Shown: positions 6,783 through 56,273, counted from the stretch's first letter. The stretch: DNA of 56,396 nucleotides from a virus (IMGVR_UViG_3300045988_043442:1-56396); one strand, 5' to 3'. Numbers and translations: made by a program. Notes: generated by a model not told the origin, from the letters alone.

Positions 6783-6805
6783 GTTCAAAACCTCGCTTTC
6801 GTTTT

Positions 6806-6871
6806 ATGGTCTGCCATCATCAGAGCCGGGAGACCATCCCACGGCTGACGCTCCAGGCGGAGCGTTTCGGC
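6806..6871 (-). ncRNA. Type II hammerhead ribozyme candidate
   Basis: Minus strand: GCC-GAAAC-GCUCC-GCCU-GGAGC-GUC / stem I hairpin-CUGAUGA-U-GGC-A-GACCAU. Loop I AUGGUC pairs with GACCAU. Confidence 0.65.
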
Positions 6872-7140
6872 TATGCTATTCTAACAACTGCATTTTTGAT
6901 ATTTGAGAAGTGAAAAAATTCCTTAGTCTCAATATTTTCAAATATTGCAGATTGTGCAAAGGTTTCGAGTGGCGTAAACGCATCACCCTTGCATGTGTAC
7001 GGGCTTTTTTCTGTATTCCAGTCAATTCCAAGTTTTCCGTTTTTCTCGTACACGCAAAAAGTCTTGTCATAGTTTCTAGTTCGTATCTCCCTATTGCTTG
7101 AATCGTATAAATGTACTTTGATTGTATCGTTTGCTTTCAT
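6871..7140 (-). CDS. Hypothetical 89-aa protein
   Basis: ORF in the operon. Its TAG stop contributes to hammerhead stem II. Confidence 0.6.
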   Translation of the reverse strand: MKANDTIKVHLYDSSNREIRTRNYDKTFCVYEKNGKLGIDWNTEKSPYTCKGDAFTPLETFAQSAIFENIETKEFFHFSNIKNAVVRIA

Positions 7141-10557: not shown

Positions 10558-10653
10558 TATTTAATGCCGTGTCTGACCAATGCGTATAAATGGCTACAAA
10601 GAATAGTACACTGCGGCAGTGATGAATATATGTCAGAGAATAAATCACAATTT

Positions 10654-10725
10654 TGCCCTTTCGCCAAGCGGTAAGGCACAGGAGTTTGATTCCTGTATGC
10701 GTTGGTTCGAGTCCAACAAGGGCAG
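10654..10725 (+). tRNA. tRNA-Gln (anticodon UUG)
   Basis: Hand-folded 72-nt cloverleaf. U1:A72 acceptor, anticodon loop GUUUGAU, T-loop UUCGAGU. Confidence 0.85.
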
Positions 10726-10939
10726 TTCAGCTTACTTTTTATTGACAGTCTATCTTTGCAACCAAGATGGACCTCCTTTCAATATTTACCTCTTTGGATT
10801 TGTTCAGTTAAGGGTAGTGCAAGACTATCCGAGAGGTTTCACCTCGCACAGAGGTGTGAAATTCAACTTATCAAGGATTTTTCTTAATGCCCCCGACTAT
10901 TTATTACAAAATTCTTGGTAGCCGTTACAGGCGGCATAT

Positions 10940-11023
10940 GCCGTGTGTCCGGTTGGTCGAGGAAGCAGTCTTGAAAACTGTCTGGGCGTAAAAGCCTCCG
11001 GGGTTCGATTCCCTGACACGGCG
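10940..11023 (+). tRNA. tRNA-Ser (anticodon UGA), long variable arm
   Basis: Acceptor GCCGUGU / ACACGGC, anticodon loop CUUGAAA, variable arm, T-loop UUCGAUU. The D-arm register is slightly irregular. Confidence 0.75.
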
Positions 11024-11097
11024 TTCTCACATGTAAACTGAAAAGAGAAACAAGTTGCTGGTTATCTGTATTTCTCTAAAACCACCTACATGTGAGT

Positions 11098-11238: not shown

Positions 11239-11360
11239 TTACAACAAACTAGGTTAGCTACCGAAAAGCACTTCCGCTGTGCCTGTTTGTTGTTTTTATC
11301 AATTAAGCGGAGTATGTATCACAGGCATACATAAATAATATCAAGCGGAGGTATTCAATT

Positions 11361-12281
11361 ATGGCAACAATTAGAGTGCATAAAACAAAAAATTACACAG
11401 TTATGAGTAATACTCATTTAAGAGATAAGAATTTAAGTCTGAAAGCAAAAGGACTATTGTCTGTAATGCTTTCATTGCCCGATAATTGGGATTATTCAAT
11501 AGCTGGGTTAGTTGCAATAAGTAAAGAGAATGAAACAGCTGTTAAATCGGCTTTAAATGAGTTAAGGGATAATAATTATGTTGTGGTTACTAAGGAAAAC
11601 CCGACAAAAAGCAATGGTGGAAGAATAAAGTACACCTACGAGGTTTACGAAGAACCATATAAACAGAAAATAGAAAAACAAGATACAGAAAATCTAGGGG
11701 TTGAATGTCAACAGGTAGAAAACCACGGACAATTAAATACTAATGAATTAAGTACTGATGAATTAAATATTAATAAACAAAATACTGAAAGATCAATTAC
11801 TAATAAGGACTATACATCAATTAACATTGATGGAGAGGTACATACATCGTTTTCAGAGAAACCGACGGCAAGAGCTGTCACAAGAGATGAAATGTTGCTT
11901 AAAGAAAAAGATATGGTTGATAGGTTCAATAACATCTGTGACAATGACATAGATAATTCAGCTATATGTGATTGCGTTAAGGATGGATTTAAGATGTATA
12001 TGCAGTTATATGAAATCTATTTCCATAAAGTACACCCAATACTTACAGATAAGACATTAAAGAATGTATGTTTTGTACTATCAACTATCACAGATACAGA
12101 ACACGGACATTTCGACGCTGACGCTATATACGAAACAGACGATAAGGGCATTACAGTTTTACAGAGAATGATTAACGACCATTTCATCAGAGAACATAGA
12201 GAAAGCACCAACTACTCAATAACACATTTTGCCAATGCTGAATATCTTAGCAAGCTGGCAAATGGATTTATAGAGATGTAA
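11361..12281 (+). CDS. Winged-helix DNA-binding protein (replication-initiator/DnaD-like N-terminus)
   Basis: YTVMSNTHLRDKNLSLKAKGLLSVMLSLPDNWDYSIAGL...LNELRDNNYV pattern. Confidence 0.55.
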   Translation: MATIRVHKTKNYTVMSNTHLRDKNLSLKAKGLLSVMLSLPDNWDYSIAGLVAISKENETAVKSALNELRDNNYVVVTKENPTKSNGGRIKYTYEVYEEPYKQKIEKQDTENLGVECQQVENHGQLNTNELSTDELNINKQNTERSITNKDYTSINIDGEVHTSFSEKPTARAVTRDEMLLKEKDMVDRFNNICDNDIDNSAICDCVKDGFKMYMQLYEIYFHKVHPILTDKTLKNVCFVLSTITDTEHGHFDADAIYETDDKGITVLQRMINDHFIREHRESTNYSITHFANAEYLSKLANGFIEM

Positions 12282-35975: not shown

Positions 35976-37259
35976 ATGATTAAATTCGGAATTGACACAT
36001 CAAGATGGCAGGGAGACTTTGATTTTAAAGGTGCAAAGGAAAATGAGGGTGTAGACTTTGCTATTATCAAGGCAGGCGGCGCTGATGATGGCTTATACGA
36101 AGATAGAGAATTTGAGAACAGCTATAACAAGTTGGAGAATGCAGGAATTCACAAGGGGGCGTATTATTTTGGTAACGCTTTAAGCACCGATGAAGCTATT
36201 AATGAAGCAAGGCATTGTGCAAGCATTTTAACTAACAAATCTTTTTGTTATCCTGTTTTTTACGATGTTGAGGGCGGTATGCTTACAGGCGAGGATTTAA
36301 CGGAGATTGTGCTTGCATTTATGAATGAACTTAAAAGGGCTGGCTTTAAAAATATAGGGCTTTACATGTCAGCTAACCATTTTAATAATTATGTAGATGT
36401 TGCGAGAGTAAAAAACGATGGTTTCAGCCTTTGGGTAGCAAGCTATTCAAGTGGAAAGCCACAGCTTACAAATGACACGGATTATGATATGTGGCAGTTT
36501 GGCGGAAGTGTTAATTATCTTAGAGACACACAGATTAACGGACAGACAGTAGACCAGAATTATTGCTACACTGATTATTGCACAGACCATGTCGTTGAAG
36601 AAATCACAGTACCGGACTATGAGCCAGTGCCAGACACTAAGTATCATAAAGACGATACAGTTAAGGTTATTAACGCTATTCAGTACGATAATGGCGAGCC
36701 ATTTAGCACTTACTATGATGAGTACAGTGTTTTATCAGCTAACGGCAGAAGAGTTGTTATTGGCGTTGATGGCGTAATCACTGCTGCTATTGACGAGGAT
36801 AACATAAGCCTTATCAAGTGTATTTATGACAATGACAATGATATTAACACAGATACAGTAAACCGTGGTGATGGCAAGAAAGTCAGAGTGCTTGATAACA
36901 TTGATTATGACGGCGTGAGATTCGCGACATATTATGATGAATATGATGTAATTGAAGAGGACGGAGACAGAATTGTTATAGGTATTGGCACAACAATCAC
37001 AGCCGCTGTAAATATTGCTAATCTTGAATTTATCGGCGGTGCAAGTTCTGATGATACGCCTACAGATATTCCATTTAGCGGAGATATTGAAGAGGGCAGT
37101 ACTGTAAGATTTGTCGGCAATACCGATTATGACGGAACACCTATTAAGGCTTGGTTTGATGAGTACACAGTATCAGAAAGAAGTGGAGACAGAGTTGTAC
37201 TTGTGCATGACGGAGAATTATTCGCAGCAGTCAATGTAACCGATTGCGAACTTATTTAA
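35976..37259 (+). CDS. Endolysin: GH25 muramidase plus three SH3-like wall-binding repeats
   Basis: FGIDTSRWQG and later GH25 motifs. Three about 65-aa repeats ending AAI/AAV-N-x-x-N/D-x-x-LI. Confidence 0.9.
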   Translation: MIKFGIDTSRWQGDFDFKGAKENEGVDFAIIKAGGADDGLYEDREFENSYNKLENAGIHKGAYYFGNALSTDEAINEARHCASILTNKSFCYPVFYDVEGGMLTGEDLTEIVLAFMNELKRAGFKNIGLYMSANHFNNYVDVARVKNDGFSLWVASYSSGKPQLTNDTDYDMWQFGGSVNYLRDTQINGQTVDQNYCYTDYCTDHVVEEITVPDYEPVPDTKYHKDDTVKVINAIQYDNGEPFSTYYDEYSVLSANGRRVVIGVDGVITAAIDEDNISLIKCIYDNDNDINTDTVNRGDGKKVRVLDNIDYDGVRFATYYDEYDVIEEDGDRIVIGIGTTITAAVNIANLEFIGGASSDDTPTDIPFSGDIEEGSTVRFVGNTDYDGTPIKAWFDEYTVSERSGDRVVLVHDGELFAAVNVTDCELI

Positions 37260-38086: not shown

Positions 38087-38113
38087 AAAGACCGAGATTT
38101 TTTCTCGGTCTTT
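38087..38113. terminator. Bidirectional terminator
   Basis: AAAGACCGAGA / TCTCGGTCTTT stem. Confidence 0.8.
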
Positions 38114-38138: not shown

Positions 38139-38501
38139 TTACCTCTCATTTATCAAGTCAATCAGTTTTTCTAAACTTTCCCAGTCGCTTTCATTTAACT
38201 TGGCTAATGCACTTACAAGCCTATGTTTGAAATTGTCTTCACCGCTTCTCTGAATATTTCCAAGCATTTCAGCAATCTGCTCATCTTTGGATTTCTCTAT
38301 AAACATTTCCCCATCGCCGGTTCGCAGCCATTCTTCATTAACGGAAAATTCATTACATATCAGTTTTATAGTCTGTTCTGACGGATAATTTTCTCCGCTT
38401 TCCATTTTACAAACAGCAGAACGGGATATAGATAGTTTTTGAGCAAAATCAGTCTGGCTTATATTCAAGCTATTTCTAATTTTTTTAATTCTCTCATTCA
38501 T
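38139..38501 (-). CDS. XRE-family CI-like repressor without a peptidase domain
   Basis: AAAGGAGGAA RBS. IKKIRNSLNISQTDFAQKLSISRSAVCKMESGENYPSEQTI. Confidence 0.85.
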   Translation of the reverse strand: MNERIKKIRNSLNISQTDFAQKLSISRSAVCKMESGENYPSEQTIKLICNEFSVNEEWLRTGDGEMFIEKSKDEQIAEMLGNIQRSGEDNFKHRLVSALAKLNESDWESLEKLIDLINER

Positions 38502-38527
38502 AAGTAGTTCCTCCTTTCTTGAAAAGT

Positions 38528-38556
38528 ATAATAACATAAAATGCACATTAAGTCAA
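38528..38556 (-). promoter_or_regulatory. Repressor promoter
   Basis: Minus strand: TTGACT, 17 nt, TATTAT. Confidence 0.6.
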
Positions 38557-38564
38557 CAAAAGTG

Positions 38565-38593
38565 TTGACAATGTATATTTAATGTGCTAATAT
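38565..38593 (+). promoter_or_regulatory. Early rightward promoter with GCACAT operator half-sites
   Basis: TTGACA, 17 nt, TAATAT. GCACATTAA at 38543..38551 faces TTAATGTGC at 38579..38587. A third ATGCACAT lies at 38594..38601. Confidence 0.65.
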
Positions 38594-38777: not shown

Positions 38778-38927
38778 ATGGAAAGAGAATTGAAAGAATT
38801 AATCCAGATTGAAAAGAAAAGAAATTCCTTGCTTGAAGAAATCAATCGGTCATTGAAGAAACTTGCAAGCAAGGAAGATAAAGAGTGTCAGAGTGAAGTT
38901 GGTAAATCGGCTTTTAATCTTGATTGA
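38778..38927 (+). CDS. Hypothetical 49-aa coiled-coil protein
   Basis: ATG lies 2 nt after the upstream stop. Confidence 0.4.
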   Translation: MERELKELIQIEKKRNSLLEEINRSLKKLASKEDKECQSEVGKSAFNLD

Positions 38928-39138
38928 GCCAATTATGGTAATGTTCCAGCATTTCCATAATGCCAATTTCAACCCACGCACGACGAATAAACTCGTGTTC
39001 TTCAGCAATGTCAGTAAAGTTTTGCTTTTCAGTAGCAGACATTACTTTCTGATGAATTGAAGAATGAATTTCATTGCCATTAGAGCTTACAAAAGCTTTG
39101 AAATCTTCAAAATTTTTCACAATCTCACCTCTTTTCAT
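38914..39138 (-). CDS. Hypothetical 74-aa protein
   Basis: An extended -10 (TGCTATAAT) lies 13 nt upstream of the ATG. No obvious SD. Confidence 0.45.
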   Translation of the reverse strand: MKRGEIVKNFEDFKAFVSSNGNEIHSSIHQKVMSATEKQNFTDIAEEHEFIRRAWVEIGIMEMLEHYHNWLNQD

Positions 39139-39188
39139 AAAAGATAAGAGGATTATAGCACAAAGTACAAACAGATTAGAATTTTTGA

Positions 39189-39216
39189 TATTGATGCAAT
39201 AGAAAAGTGATGGTAG
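39189..39216. repeat. Left arm of a 28-bp inverted repeat
   Basis: TATTGATGCAATAGAAAAGTGATGGTAG. Matches 26 of 28 positions in the reverse complement of 39466..39493. Confidence 0.9.
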
Positions 39217-39305
39217 CGGTAAATAGTTACAAATCTCTTATAATGTAGTATTCATTGGTTTTTCAAAACAGGAGTGGCGTCCTGCTTACATCGAGTGTAA
39301 ATTAC

Positions 39306-39443
39306 CTACCGATTGGCAGTTTTGTCTTTAGCATATTTGTTTAATTCTATTGATATAGAAATAAAAGTATATAGGGTGCAGAAGTCTAAACCATAGAAGT
39401 ATGAGCCGACCACTGATATGCACAATGCTATGACAGTATCCAT
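39306..39443 (-). CDS. 45-aa hydrophobic peptide, type I toxin-like
   Basis: AAAGGAG RBS 5 nt from the ATG. MDTVIALCISVVGSYFYGLDFCTLYTFISISIELNKYAKDKTANR. Confidence 0.45.
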   Translation of the reverse strand: MDTVIALCISVVGSYFYGLDFCTLYTFISISIELNKYAKDKTANR

Positions 39444-39465
39444 ACAATCTCCTTTCGGAAAGTGT

Positions 39466-39493
39466 CTACCATCACTTCTCTATTGTATCAATA
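39466..39493. repeat. Right arm of the 28-bp inverted repeat, overlapping the peptide promoter
   Basis: CTACCATCACTTCTCTATTGTATCAATA. On the minus strand TTGTAG (39510..39505), 17 nt, TACAAT (39487..39482). Confidence 0.9.
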
Positions 39494-39601
39494 AATATAA
39501 AGTTCTACAAGTTACAGCAGATAGGAATGAGCAGAATCGCTTAAATGCACCTTAAAAGGTCAAAATATATCACACACAAATACAAAAGGAAAGGAATGTT
39601 T

Positions 39602-40378
39602 ATGGAGCTACAGATTTTTAGCAATTCAGAGTTTGGAGAAATCCGAACTATTACTAAAGATGATGAGCCTATGTTTTGCTTGGCTGATGTATGCAAGGCA
39701 TTGGAACTTACACAGCCATCAAAGGTAAAAGAAAGATTAAACGAAAAGGGTGTGCGTAGTATTCCTACCCTTACAAAAGGCGGAGAACAAAAGCTCTTAT
39801 ACATAAATGAGCCAAATCTTTACAAGACAATCTTTCAGAGCCGTAAAGATAGTGCAGAAAGATTTACAGATTGGGTAACAGGAGAAGTTCTTCCGTCAAT
39901 CAGAAAGAATGGCGGCTACATAGCAGGGCAGGAAACAATGTCTGATGAAGAACTTATGGCAAAGGCACTTCTTGTAGCCAATAACAAGATAGCTGAAAGA
40001 GACAGAGTCATTGAACAGAAGCAGGCAAGAATTGAACAGATGAAACCTAAAGAGATTTTCGCAGATGCAGTATCAGCAAGCCATACATCAATTCTTGTTG
40101 GAGATTTGGCAAAGTTGATTTGCCAGAACGGCTATCAGATAGGGCAGAAGCGATTGTTTGATTGGTTGAGAGCCAATGGCTATCTGATTAAGAGCGGTAG
40201 TTCTTACAATATGCCTACACAAAGGTATGTTGAACAGGGGCTATTTGAAATCAAGGAAAGTAACCTTGTTAATCCAGATGGAAGCGTAAGAATTACACGC
40301 ACACCAAAGGTAACAGGCAAAGGACAGGTTTACTTTGTTAATAAGTTTTTAAGTAAGGAGAATGTTTATGAAAAATGA
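39602..40378 (+). CDS. Antirepressor (Bro-N plus KilA-C/ANT-type domains)
   Basis: MELQIFSNSEFGEIRTI...FCLADVCKALE...ERFTDWVTGEVLPSIRKNGGY. Confidence 0.85.
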   Translation: MELQIFSNSEFGEIRTITKDDEPMFCLADVCKALELTQPSKVKERLNEKGVRSIPTLTKGGEQKLLYINEPNLYKTIFQSRKDSAERFTDWVTGEVLPSIRKNGGYIAGQETMSDEELMAKALLVANNKIAERDRVIEQKQARIEQMKPKEIFADAVSASHTSILVGDLAKLICQNGYQIGQKRLFDWLRANGYLIKSGSSYNMPTQRYVEQGLFEIKESNLVNPDGSVRITRTPKVTGKGQVYFVNKFLSKENVYEK

Positions 40379-55000: not shown

Positions 55001-55085
55001 AGATATATTGAAATATAAGCTATTGTGTAGTAATATTAATTATCACGCAATAGCTCTTTATTTATTGAAAGGAGAGCTAAAGAAA

Positions 55086-56273
55086 ATGGGAAAGGATTTA
55101 AAAGGCAAAGAGTTAGGAAATGGAATCTGTCAACGAAAGAACGGAAAATATTGCGGTCGTTATGTTGATAGATTCGGCCAGAGAAAAAGCATTTATGACG
55201 ATAAACTGTCAGAATTAAGAAAGAAACTTGCAATTGCAATAGCTGATAGTCAGTCATTTACAAGTGTAAGAGATAGCATCAAGTTGGACGATTGGTTTAA
55301 GCGGTGGGTGGATGTATACAAAAAGAAAAGTGTACGCCCCAATACACTTAGGGAATACACTCACATATACACTAAGAATATATCACCTTTTTTTGGAAAT
55401 CGCAACATAAATTCCTTTGTTAAGTCGGATATTCAACAATTAATTGATATTGCTGACGATAAGGGCTATGGATATGAACGGCAAAGTAAAATTAAAGTTA
55501 TATTATCAGACATGTTTTCAAGAGCGATGGAAGATGAACTTATGCCCAGAAATCCAGCAAAAGGAGTTAGATTAAGGGCAAAAAAGGAAGTTTTCGCTAA
55601 AGCATTGACAGTTGATGAGCAAGAAGCGTTTTTTGAATGTTGTGCCGGCACATTTTACGACAATCTATTCAATATCGCTGTAAATACAGGCTTGCGACCG
55701 GGAGAACTGTTTGCCTTAACTGAAAATGATATTGATTTTGAAAATGGGCTGATAAATGTATCCAAGACGCTTGTATATCAAAAATACCTTGATGATGAAC
55801 GCAAGGAATTCCATTTAGAAGAGCCTAAAACAGAACAAAGTAACAGAAAAGTGCCTATGAACAGCTTATGCAGAAAGTATCTTGAAAGGCAGATAAGGCA
55901 GAAACATGTTATCGAAAGTAAACAACCTAAAGAGCAGAACGACTATTTATTTACAACAAAATTTAATACACCACTCAATTCAGTTTTATACAGTGCGGCG
56001 ATTGATTCTGTTGTAGATACAATAAATCTTGTCCGTTCTGTTGATGAAGAAATGGAATATTTCAGCGGACATACCTTGAGACATACATTTGCGACAAGAT
56101 GTTTTGAAGCAGGTGTTCAACCGAAAGTTGTTCAATCATATTTAGGTCATGCAACATTACAAATGACAATGGATTTATACACACATGTTATGCCACAGAA
56201 AGCAAGTGACGACATTGAAAGAATTGTTAAAAGCAAAAATAAAATTGTTGATTTTGTGAAAAACGTGGTGTAA
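55086..56273 (+). CDS. int: Tyrosine integrase
   Basis: AAAGGAGAG RBS. GLRPGEL, HTLRHTFAT and LGHATLQMTMDLYTHV catalytic motifs. Confidence 0.95.
   Translation: MGKDLKGKELGNGICQRKNGKYCGRYVDRFGQRKSIYDDKLSELRKKLAIAIADSQSFTSVRDSIKLDDWFKRWVDVYKKKSVRPNTLREYTHIYTKNISPFFGNRNINSFVKSDIQQLIDIADDKGYGYERQSKIKVILSDMFSRAMEDELMPRNPAKGVRLRAKKEVFAKALTVDEQEAFFECCAGTFYDNLFNIAVNTGLRPGELFALTENDIDFENGLINVSKTLVYQKYLDDERKEFHLEEPKTEQSNRKVPMNSLCRKYLERQIRQKHVIESKQPKEQNDYLFTTKFNTPLNSVLYSAAIDSVVDTINLVRSVDEEMEYFSGHTLRHTFATRCFEAGVQPKVVQSYLGHATLQMTMDLYTHVMPQKASDDIERIVKSKNKIVDFVKNVV

Follow-up and report, generated by a model that had tools for sequence, protein, structure and literature searches.

The question raised by the viral DNA IMGVR_UViG_3300045988_043442 (56,396 nucleotides; this whole stretch is called the window below) is the function of a cassette of ca. 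300 bp which sits in opposite-strand orientation, with the early genes of the cro side on one flank and the antirepressor gene ant on the other, and whose small open reading frame (ORF) is bracketed by an inverted repeat. An earlier reading of the sequence, the original prediction, had proposed a hok-like toxin module, with an invertible cassette or a miniature inverted-repeat transposable element (MITE) as alternatives. The cassette is probably best explained as a type I toxin-antitoxin-like system that combines a 5'-3' fold-back in the style of hok and aapA with the convergent, 3'-overlapping layout of Gram-positive modules; within this explanation the toxicity and both RNAs are inferred from sequence comparison and from analogy. 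By its sequence features, the right arm of the repeat is the predicted promoter of an mRNA of ca. 270 nt for a conserved membrane peptide of 45-49 amino acids.

An exact scan of IMG/VR for the arm yielded at least 119 contigs, and the 113 uncut loci were analysed as group A. Subgroups B1, B2, C, D, E, F and G were found via the Ant protein, the arm cores and peptide alignment; in all, more than 200 related viral and metagenome contigs from the human gut fall into eight diverged subgroups. Each of the 113 loci has one arm pair per phage, always in the same genomic slot. The conserved block spans ca. 39140-39700 and thus extends beyond both arms, with mosaic sequence on either side. The cassette is optional, since one phage with a 96% identical Ant carries none. 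No Rfam family was found within the module.

The minus-strand ORF and its Shine-Dalgarno (SD) sequence AAAGGAG (39449-39455, 5 nt 5' of the ATG) are as the original prediction had them, and the build that it had likened to type I toxins, a small hydrophobic peptide with a charged tail, recurs in all subgroups. Residues 3-32 of the 45 are hydrophobic, and a single transmembrane stretch with conserved G13 and D20-F-C-T-L is followed by the charged tail YAKDKTANR (KYAKDKTANR with the preceding lysine). The 45-codon frame is unbroken in 81/113 group-A loci, where the common replacements are conservative (I/V, V/A, L/V, T/A, L/F and C/Y). Between subgroups A-F synonymous differences are near saturation (pS 0.42-0.75), with dN/dS values of 0.12-0.53. 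As judged from these comparisons, this is a genuine, conserved and translated gene for a small membrane protein. An exhaustive phmmer search of 1.84 billion representatives returned 12 clusters of 45-81 amino acids, nine of them at 45-50; all 12 contain the DFCTL core and most also the YxNDKxARR tail, with the family consensus ..G..[FY]..[ILV]DFCTL[YF]TF.S....L.K....Y[TA]NDK[TA]A[RK]R. A word-indexed protein search with the peptide gave near-identical peptides only, and Pfam, NCBIfam and PHROGs gave no match even at E = 10; by these searches the family is an orphan. Type I toxins are known to elude homology searches. Two further observations concern the ORF itself: its 3' half shows almost no synonymous variation within group A, which may reflect a constraint at the RNA or DNA level, and TCTATTGATATAGA (39346-39360) resembles the start of the arm (TATTGATA..).

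The inverted repeat is present as first described. Its two arms of 28 nt are complementary at 26/28 positions (93%) with 249 nt between them, and the arm occurs at only two places in the window when up to 3 mismatches are allowed (0 expected from 100 shuffles). The proposed promoter TTGTAG-17-TACAAT with its -10 inside the right arm (39482-39487) was likewise found, and a TG preceding the -10 can be added (TGATACAAT). Because the -35 has only 3/6 matches to TTGACA, a generic scan omits this promoter in the window; in the relatives, the -35 at the same spacing is TTGTCT (B1, B2, C and F) or TTGATA (G). The mRNA is predicted to start 7 nt past the -10, with GUGAUGGUAG (39475..39466) as its 5' end and CUACCAUCAC (39216..39207) lying 90 nt beyond the stop codon; with this start, the inner 10 nt of the arms fall at the 5' end and in the 3' untranslated region (UTR), as had been proposed. 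Along the arm, positions 2-12 are the extended -10, positions 13-18 vary freely between the two arms, and positions 19-28 are the transcribed 10-mer, which is identical between both arms in A-D and F. In B1, B2, C, F and G the generic scan assigned a promoter to each arm (9-10/12 matches, 17-nt spacing, mostly with TG). Since both arms are called promoters in the relatives, the 28-nt repeat is interpreted, on its sequence, as the -10 regions of two convergent promoters together with a 10-nt RNA element for the fold-back.

The sense RNA of the cassette in the window (39475 to 39189) has a minimum free energy (MFE) of -69.6 kcal/mol (z = -3.7, reached by 0/200 shuffles), compared to a z of -0.67 for the plus strand. 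The 5'-3' terminal helix is part of the MFE structure in 10/10 subgroup representatives; their sense z is below the antisense z in 9/10, and ranges from -2.6 to -6.8 in nine of the ten (subgroup G, -1.2). RNAalifold and pair counts were applied to 17 sequences, with slid partners as the control, and revealed seven helices: the closing helix and an ACA/UGU extension of it, three hairpins (at the SD, over the stop codon and in the 3' UTR), and two helices that connect the beginning of the ORF with its end. Paired cells amounted to 96% versus 28-53% with slid partners, compensatory pairs to 10 versus 1-3, and the covariation score was 0.276 versus at most 0.075. The closing helix comprises 10 bp (39466-39475 with 39207-39216), and its 10-mer is altered jointly on both arms between A and the other subgroups (GTGATGGTAG to GTGATGGCGG). 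It has 9 bp in subgroup E, and in G, where the promoter halves of the arms are unrelated, the 10-bp helix remains with one G.U pair. The fold-back that had been compared to the fbi element of hok is thus predicted and kept by compensatory changes across subgroups, and the analogy is apt.

The CUUU/AAAG hairpin of the original prediction is real as well, only it contains the SD, as UUUCC-GAAA-GGAGA, instead of abutting it; RNAalifold retains three of its pairs (39459-61 with 39450-52). The long-range ORF helix has compensatory changes in 4/8 pairs, and a G.U pair in the stop-codon hairpin is kept in 16/17 sequences. The SD and stop-codon hairpins are sense-strand specific because their G.U pairs suit only that strand. 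In the 3' UTR hairpin, 4/5 pairs are compensatory across subgroups, and its A.C intermediates on the sense strand are G.U on the plus strand. The asymmetry of G.U and A.C between the arms in group A favours the minus strand at 5 positions and the opposite at 2, which is not significant, and several of the positions counted lie upstream of the predicted start. According to the folding models, the SD is occluded by its hairpin and the closing helix in the toxin-like mRNA.

On the antisense side, the plus-strand TATAAT that had been suggested as a promoter exists, at 39239-39244 rather than 39237-39242, and was rejected for this role: it is not conserved (13/113 loci, all of the 249-nt haplotype) and has neither a -35 nor a TG. 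The conserved candidate for the antisense promoter is the left arm itself (TGATGCAAT, 39193-39201), with a start predicted near 39207. In group A its -10 reads TACAAT in 33 loci and TGCAAT in 81 (71%), the window included. In B2 and F, the scan placed antisense-strand terminators ca. 85-130 nt downstream of the promoter in the far arm. The equivalent of the stop-codon hairpin in F is such a terminator by the scan, and in the window TTTTGTCTTT follows this hairpin on the plus strand, making the site a possible 3' end of the antisense RNA. On the antisense strand, a U-run comes after the 3' UTR hairpin in B2 (scan) and B1 (by eye); in B1, ACCGAT..ATCGGT and then TTTTGTCT were read by eye.

At least seven independent lesions have struck the ORF. 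They comprise deletions to 103, 105, 73 or 207 nt, a -1 frameshift that yields a KLPxGR tail, a nonsense change (TGG-to-TAG, in B1) and the shifted tails of D and G. All lesioned alleles retain the arms, and all except the 73-nt deletion retain the 3' UTR; in the 26 loci with the ORF deleted, the arms and the 3' UTR survive, that is, the putative antisense gene. Among lesioned group-A alleles 32/33 carry TGCAAT, so that 32/81 TGCAAT alleles are lesioned versus 1/33 with TACAAT. This association of a weakened -10 with lesions is suggestive, being confounded by shared ancestry and comprising about five independent events. As a separate observation, frameshifts recur in different lineages (L063, L014, L362-L365, L300 and L379/L380) and lead to the same alternative frame, with a basic tail ..KLP(I/D/N)G(R/I) and a stop 4 nt past the normal one; this could mean attenuation rather than loss.

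In the mechanism which we propose, the first 10 nt of the mRNA would pair with their complement ca. 90 nt beyond the stop codon. This closing helix would stack on the hairpin with the GAAA loop in which the SD is buried, the ORF and the 3' UTR would be linked by additional covarying helices, and the full-length mRNA would, like those of hok and aapA, be stable and translationally inert. The left arm would serve as a second, convergent promoter. Because its RNA would share the same first 10 nt and be complementary to the 3' UTR, it would compete with the mRNA 5' end for the 3' site. Antisense pairing would open the fold-back and result in cleavage of the duplex or in a silent message, and during lytic growth the same antisense sequence could be supplied by read-through from the early promoter. 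Peptide that escaped this control would damage the membrane, for the benefit of prophage maintenance or abortive defence.

Several results weigh against this explanation. The covariation of the fold-back consists of one double change (A versus the rest) plus subgroups E and G. The conservation of features is partly a collection effect, since it was the arm or the peptide that led to most of the loci. In the window the -10 of the left arm is TGCAAT, with the key A replaced by G, and has no -35; for the antisense side of group A the generic scan found neither a -35 nor a canonical terminator, and shuffled sequences fold as well as the predicted antisense RNAs (z about 0). The ORF is unbroken in 49/81 loci with TGCAAT, which means that either the fold-back alone suffices, or early-operon read-through provides the antisense, or the peptide is little toxic. 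Finally, the sharp DFCTL and YxNDKxARR motifs exceed the needs of a generic pore-former and, as sequence features, could indicate a specific partner.

Known type I systems share different parts of this architecture. A long-distance 5'-3' interaction closes the mRNAs of hok and aapA (PMC6733600). The hok/sok systems of R1 and their chromosomal homologues resemble the cassette in having a small membrane peptide, a full-length mRNA closed 5'-to-3' (fbi), a fold backed by covariation and toxin copies that are often inactivated (PMC6733600). Unlike hok/sok, the cassette shows no Hok/Gef similarity (no Pfam match) and no overlapping mok frame, and it resides in a Firmicutes phage; whereas Sok targets the 5' leader, the antisense promoter is here predicted at the 3' end, and its RNA would run over the fbi-like element. 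The fold-back analogy and the membrane peptide of the proposed hok-like module therefore stand, while membership of the hok family does not. The aapA/IsoA system of Helicobacter pylori likewise has the 5'-3' interaction together with local SD hairpins, and its activation needs 3' trimming (PMC6733600). Its 3' element is an anti-SD, whereas in the cassette the local GAAA hairpin, stacked on the closing helix, holds the SD; moreover, IsoA overlaps the 5' part and the peptides are unrelated.

Similar to the cassette, par/Fst of pAD1 has convergent promoters that bracket ca. 300 bp, an extreme 5' end sequestered by an intramolecular helix, and an SD covered by a 5' stem-loop (PMC7472228). Predicted promoter pairs of this kind bracket the module in B1, B2, C, F and G, and the window's own pair is weak. 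Differences from par/Fst are that the latter has direct repeats called DRa and DRb, which are read in opposite directions, together with a bidirectional terminator that is shared, whereas the repeats here are inverted and no terminator is shared, those found working on the antisense strand only; also, the 5' end pairs with the far 3' end and not with a nearby upstream helix, and there is no Fst motif. The type I modules of the Clostridioides difficile prophages phiCD630-1 and phiCD630-2 (CD0977.1/RCd11 and others) are likewise found in prophages of gut Clostridia, and share a hydrophobic N-terminus with a positive tail and convergent transcription, the overlap lying at the 3' end of the antitoxin (PMC7699646). 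They have short and long antitoxins and help to maintain the mobile element, and by analogy the antisense-strand terminators of the relatives, together with the strong terminator beyond the peptide promoter described below, would fit short and long antisense forms here; twin-promoter inverted repeats or a 5'-3' fold-back are not mentioned in the passages of that paper drawn on here (PMC7699646). No sequence similarity to those modules was found, the family search giving DFCTL-type peptides only.

The Bacillus subtilis systems bsrG/SR4 and txpA/RatA are prophage-borne, with convergent RNAs overlapping at their 3' ends, and involve RNase III and SD structure. Their peptides are unrelated to the one described here, and we know of no closing 5'-3' helix reported for them. 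In the P22 immI region, sar is a non-coding RNA whose antisense promoter lies 5' of the antirepressor gene, directed against the ant transcript and covering the ant ribosome-binding site (RBS). The antisense-oriented transcript of the cassette differs in coding for a conserved peptide and in its predicted end, which lies well upstream of ant. On sequence grounds the cassette thus falls outside hok, Fst and any other known toxin family.

The main rival to the toxin-antitoxin explanation is that the peptide is a non-toxic membrane protein of lysogeny, a moron, acting for example in superinfection exclusion or in modulation of a host membrane partner, with the RNA control setting its level. This is unlikely in our view, yet it accommodates the conserved and specific motifs with dN/dS well below 1 and the many alleles which are unbroken despite a weakened antisense -10. 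The cassette is also optional, adjoins a hot spot of variable small genes and, in the manner of morons, is oriented away from the early operon. What speaks for a toxin instead is that SD occlusion, a closing helix and a convergent antisense promoter form the typical layout of genes that have to be kept silent (PMC6733600, PMC7472228), and that the ORF lesions recur while the RNA elements are kept.

Next in rank, and quite unlikely, is the proposal that the cassette insulates ant by blocking early-operon read-through via convergent transcription, antisense pairing and a strong terminator that most subgroups have shortly 5' of ant, the peptide being secondary. Cro-like genes and ant flank the module in A, B1, E and F, and in phages without the cassette cro adjoins ant. 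Beyond the peptide promoter, a strong terminator on the ant strand, composed of a 9-11 bp stem CCAACTA..TAGTTGG and a T-run, was found in B1, B2, C, F and G by the scan and in D and E by eye; in one B1 locus (L181, by eye) it ends ca. 25 nt 5' of the ant RBS. With such a terminator, ant would need read-through or antitermination. However, the terminator was not found in group A, including the window, and subgroup G has cassette and terminator without a neighbouring ant. Insulation would also leave the purifying selection on the peptide, the SD occlusion and the fold-back unexplained.

A very unlikely alternative is that a single regulatory protein binds the arms and controls the two promoters, perhaps through DNA looping; the repeat would then be kept for recognition by this protein instead of for RNA pairing. 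The palindrome-like ATTG-N3-CAAT over the -10 in each arm and the promoter halves of F, which changed in concert on both arms to GTTGGTATAATGGATAT, would agree with this. In G, however, the two promoter halves are dissimilar and complementarity is confined to the transcribed 10-mer, and the free variation at arm positions 13-18 is also at odds with it. Elsewhere in the window the palindrome shows no enrichment (7 matches versus 5.75 expected), and the cI-cro operators (repeat I8) look different.

That the cassette is an invertible, phase-variable promoter, in line with the invertible cassette that had been suggested, is barely probable even with a 28-bp inverted repeat around ca. 250 bp that contains a promoter and a tyrosine recombinase encoded at 55008-56273. 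The -35 lies beyond the arm, and the orientation of the inner segment relative to the ant leader was constant in 113/113 viral loci and in 126/126 distinct group-A modules (viral and metagenome), leaving 0/126 inverted; these counts come from assemblies, in which a minor orientation could be missed. Among eight ORFs scanned between 35976 and 40378 there was no dedicated invertase, the integrase at 55008-56273 being the only recombinase found. A MITE, as had also been suggested, or another small mobile element, for which the terminal inverted repeats around a short segment would speak, has next to no probability and is ruled out because there is one pair per phage, in the same slot, and because a search of 185,579 species-representative genomes with the arm had no hit. 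Moreover, the conserved block exceeds both arms, and inspection by eye showed no target-site duplication next to them. Within the limits of assemblies, inverton and MITE are thus excluded.

The phage that carries the cassette has a G+C content of ca. 37% and a temperate lifestyle as judged from the 56-kb window, and its family consists of temperate human-gut phages of Lachnospiraceae; one B1 member is a prophage inside a Lachnospiraceae metagenome-assembled genome. INPHARED DNA searches with 39100-39600 (distant mode) and 15000-36000 (near mode) gave no match, and the nearest database phage, Dulem virus 39, is related at the protein level only (terminase 83%). Two metagenome contigs contain the cassette twice, ca. 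55-59 kb apart (L324/L327 in ERZ809744.15 and L362/L364 in ERZ1673738.222), which looks like assembly of the phage as a concatemer or dimer, and contigs of 153 and 265 kb (L317 and L322) suggest integrated prophages.

Directly beyond the left arm, a conserved minus-strand TGcTATAAT (39152-39160) precedes different small genes in different phages, or none: the 74-aa ORF in the window (38914-39138), a 58-62-aa protein or a CxxC zinc-ribbon protein elsewhere. The place next to the cassette is thus a slot for mosaic cargo. In the conserved ant leader, AAATGCACCTTAA (39543-39555) is similar to AAATGCACATTAA (38539-38551), which is a portion of an inverted repeat in the cI-cro intergenic region (repeats D12 and I8); by this resemblance the leader sequence 5' of ant may be a candidate repressor half-site. 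A perfect 11-bp hairpin with T-runs on both sides (38087-38113) forms a bidirectional terminator directly 3' of the cI-like gene. Farther away, the window contains a type II hammerhead ribozyme (6805-6872, minus strand; 63 bits versus a gathering score of 37) within a minus-strand block of small ORFs, an int-alpA RNA motif (45 bits; 11242-11308, plus strand) directly 5' of an HTH_36 ORF (11361-12281), and genes for tRNA-Gln(UUG) (10653-10726) and tRNA-Ser(UGA) (10939-11024), both on the plus strand. The coordinates of the main features are collected in Table 1.

Table 1. Features of the cassette and its surroundings in the window, terminators at related loci, and arm sequences of the subgroups (each arm written along its own transcription).
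Feature	Position	Strand	Description or source
GH25 lysin	35976-37259	+	domain scan
cI-like HTH repressor	38139-38546	-	domain scan
Divergent promoters	38528-38593		promoter scan
Small early genes	3' of the divergent promoters	+	ORF list
74-aa ORF	38914-39138	-	ORF list
Cassette studied	39189-39510		
Left arm	39189..39216	+	3' fold-back partner CUACCAUCAC (39207-39216) on the minus-strand mRNA; candidate antisense promoter on the plus strand
Putative antisense (antitoxin) RNA	39207..39329	+	ca. 80-120 nt, complementary to the 3' UTR and last codons; predicted from promoter and terminator calls in relatives
3' UTR hairpin CAGGA-N6-TCCTG	39269..39284	unassigned	RNAalifold
Peptide gene, 45 aa	39306..39443	-	encodes MDTVIALCISVVGSYFYGLDFCTLYTFISISIELNKYAKDKTANR
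Stop-codon hairpin CUGCC-AAUC-GGUAG	39306..39319	-	
Long-range ORF helix	39324..39434	-	39425-39434 with 39324-39334, joins coding start and end
5' UTR	39444..39465	-	ACA/UGU helix (39463-65 with 39444-46) around the SD hairpin
SD-sequestering hairpin UUUCC-GAAA-GGAGA	39448-39461	-	5-bp UUUCC/GGAGA stem in the single-sequence MFE
Right arm	39466..39493	-	extended -10 TGATACAAT (39482-39490), 6-nt discriminator, first 10 transcribed nt GTGATGGTAG (39475..39466)
-35 TTGTAG of the peptide promoter	39505..39510	-	17 nt from TACAAT
Bro-N/KilAC antirepressor (ant)	39602-40378	+	domain scan
SSB, RecT	3' of ant		
Tn916-type integrase (tyrosine recombinase)	55008-56273	+	
Terminators at related loci	L200 3899-3921; L288 12024-12048; L375 1395-1420; L379 1415-1441; L284 5553-5576	ant strand	
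Subgroup A arms			peptide-promoter TATTGATACAATAGAGAAGTGATGGTAG; far TATTGATGCAATAGAAAAGTGATGGTAG
Subgroup B1 arms			peptide-promoter GTTGATACAATGAAGATGTGATGGCGG; far GTTGATACAATGAAAATGTGATGGCGG
Subgroup B2 arms			peptide-promoter ..GAATACGTGATGGCGG; far ..GGATATGTGATGGCGG
Subgroup F arms			peptide-promoter GTTGGTATAATGGATATAAGTGATGGCGG; far GTTGGTATAATGGATATGTGATGGCGG
Subgroup G arms			peptide-promoter ..TATTATTAAATTAATGGTGGCGG; far GGTATAATAGATGATGGCGG

The toxin-antitoxin explanation can be carried further by a joint reading that we put forward tentatively and consider rather doubtful as a whole. In its first part, the convergent RNAs would share their first 10 nt, and the antitoxin RNA, as a mimic of the toxin mRNA's 5' end, would compete with the latter for a single 3' docking site. 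Second, the closing helix together with the U-rich complement of the opposite discriminator might end the mRNA. Third, the cassette would gate read-through into ant and thereby tie a killer peptide to the lysis-lysogeny switch of phages that are abundant in the human gut. If true, this would be a regulatory principle not described for type I systems.

To our knowledge, few type I families are known beyond Enterobacteria, Bacillus, Staphylococcus, Enterococcus, Helicobacter and C. difficile, and the 5'-3' fold-back is so far known from hok and aapA in Proteobacteria. The cassette adds an orphan peptide family with sharp motifs and an mRNA fold supported by covariation and, if the toxin-antitoxin explanation is correct, would add Firmicutes phages to the known carriers of the 5'-3' fold-back. 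It would also offer a compact case in which an antisense RNA and the mRNA 5' end share one target. The natural alleles in which the ORF is deleted or frameshifted or the promoter is weakened represent a ready series for genetic dissection. If the peptide is toxic, it would be usable as a counter-selection marker for Lachnospiraceae, as reported for C. difficile (PMC7699646).

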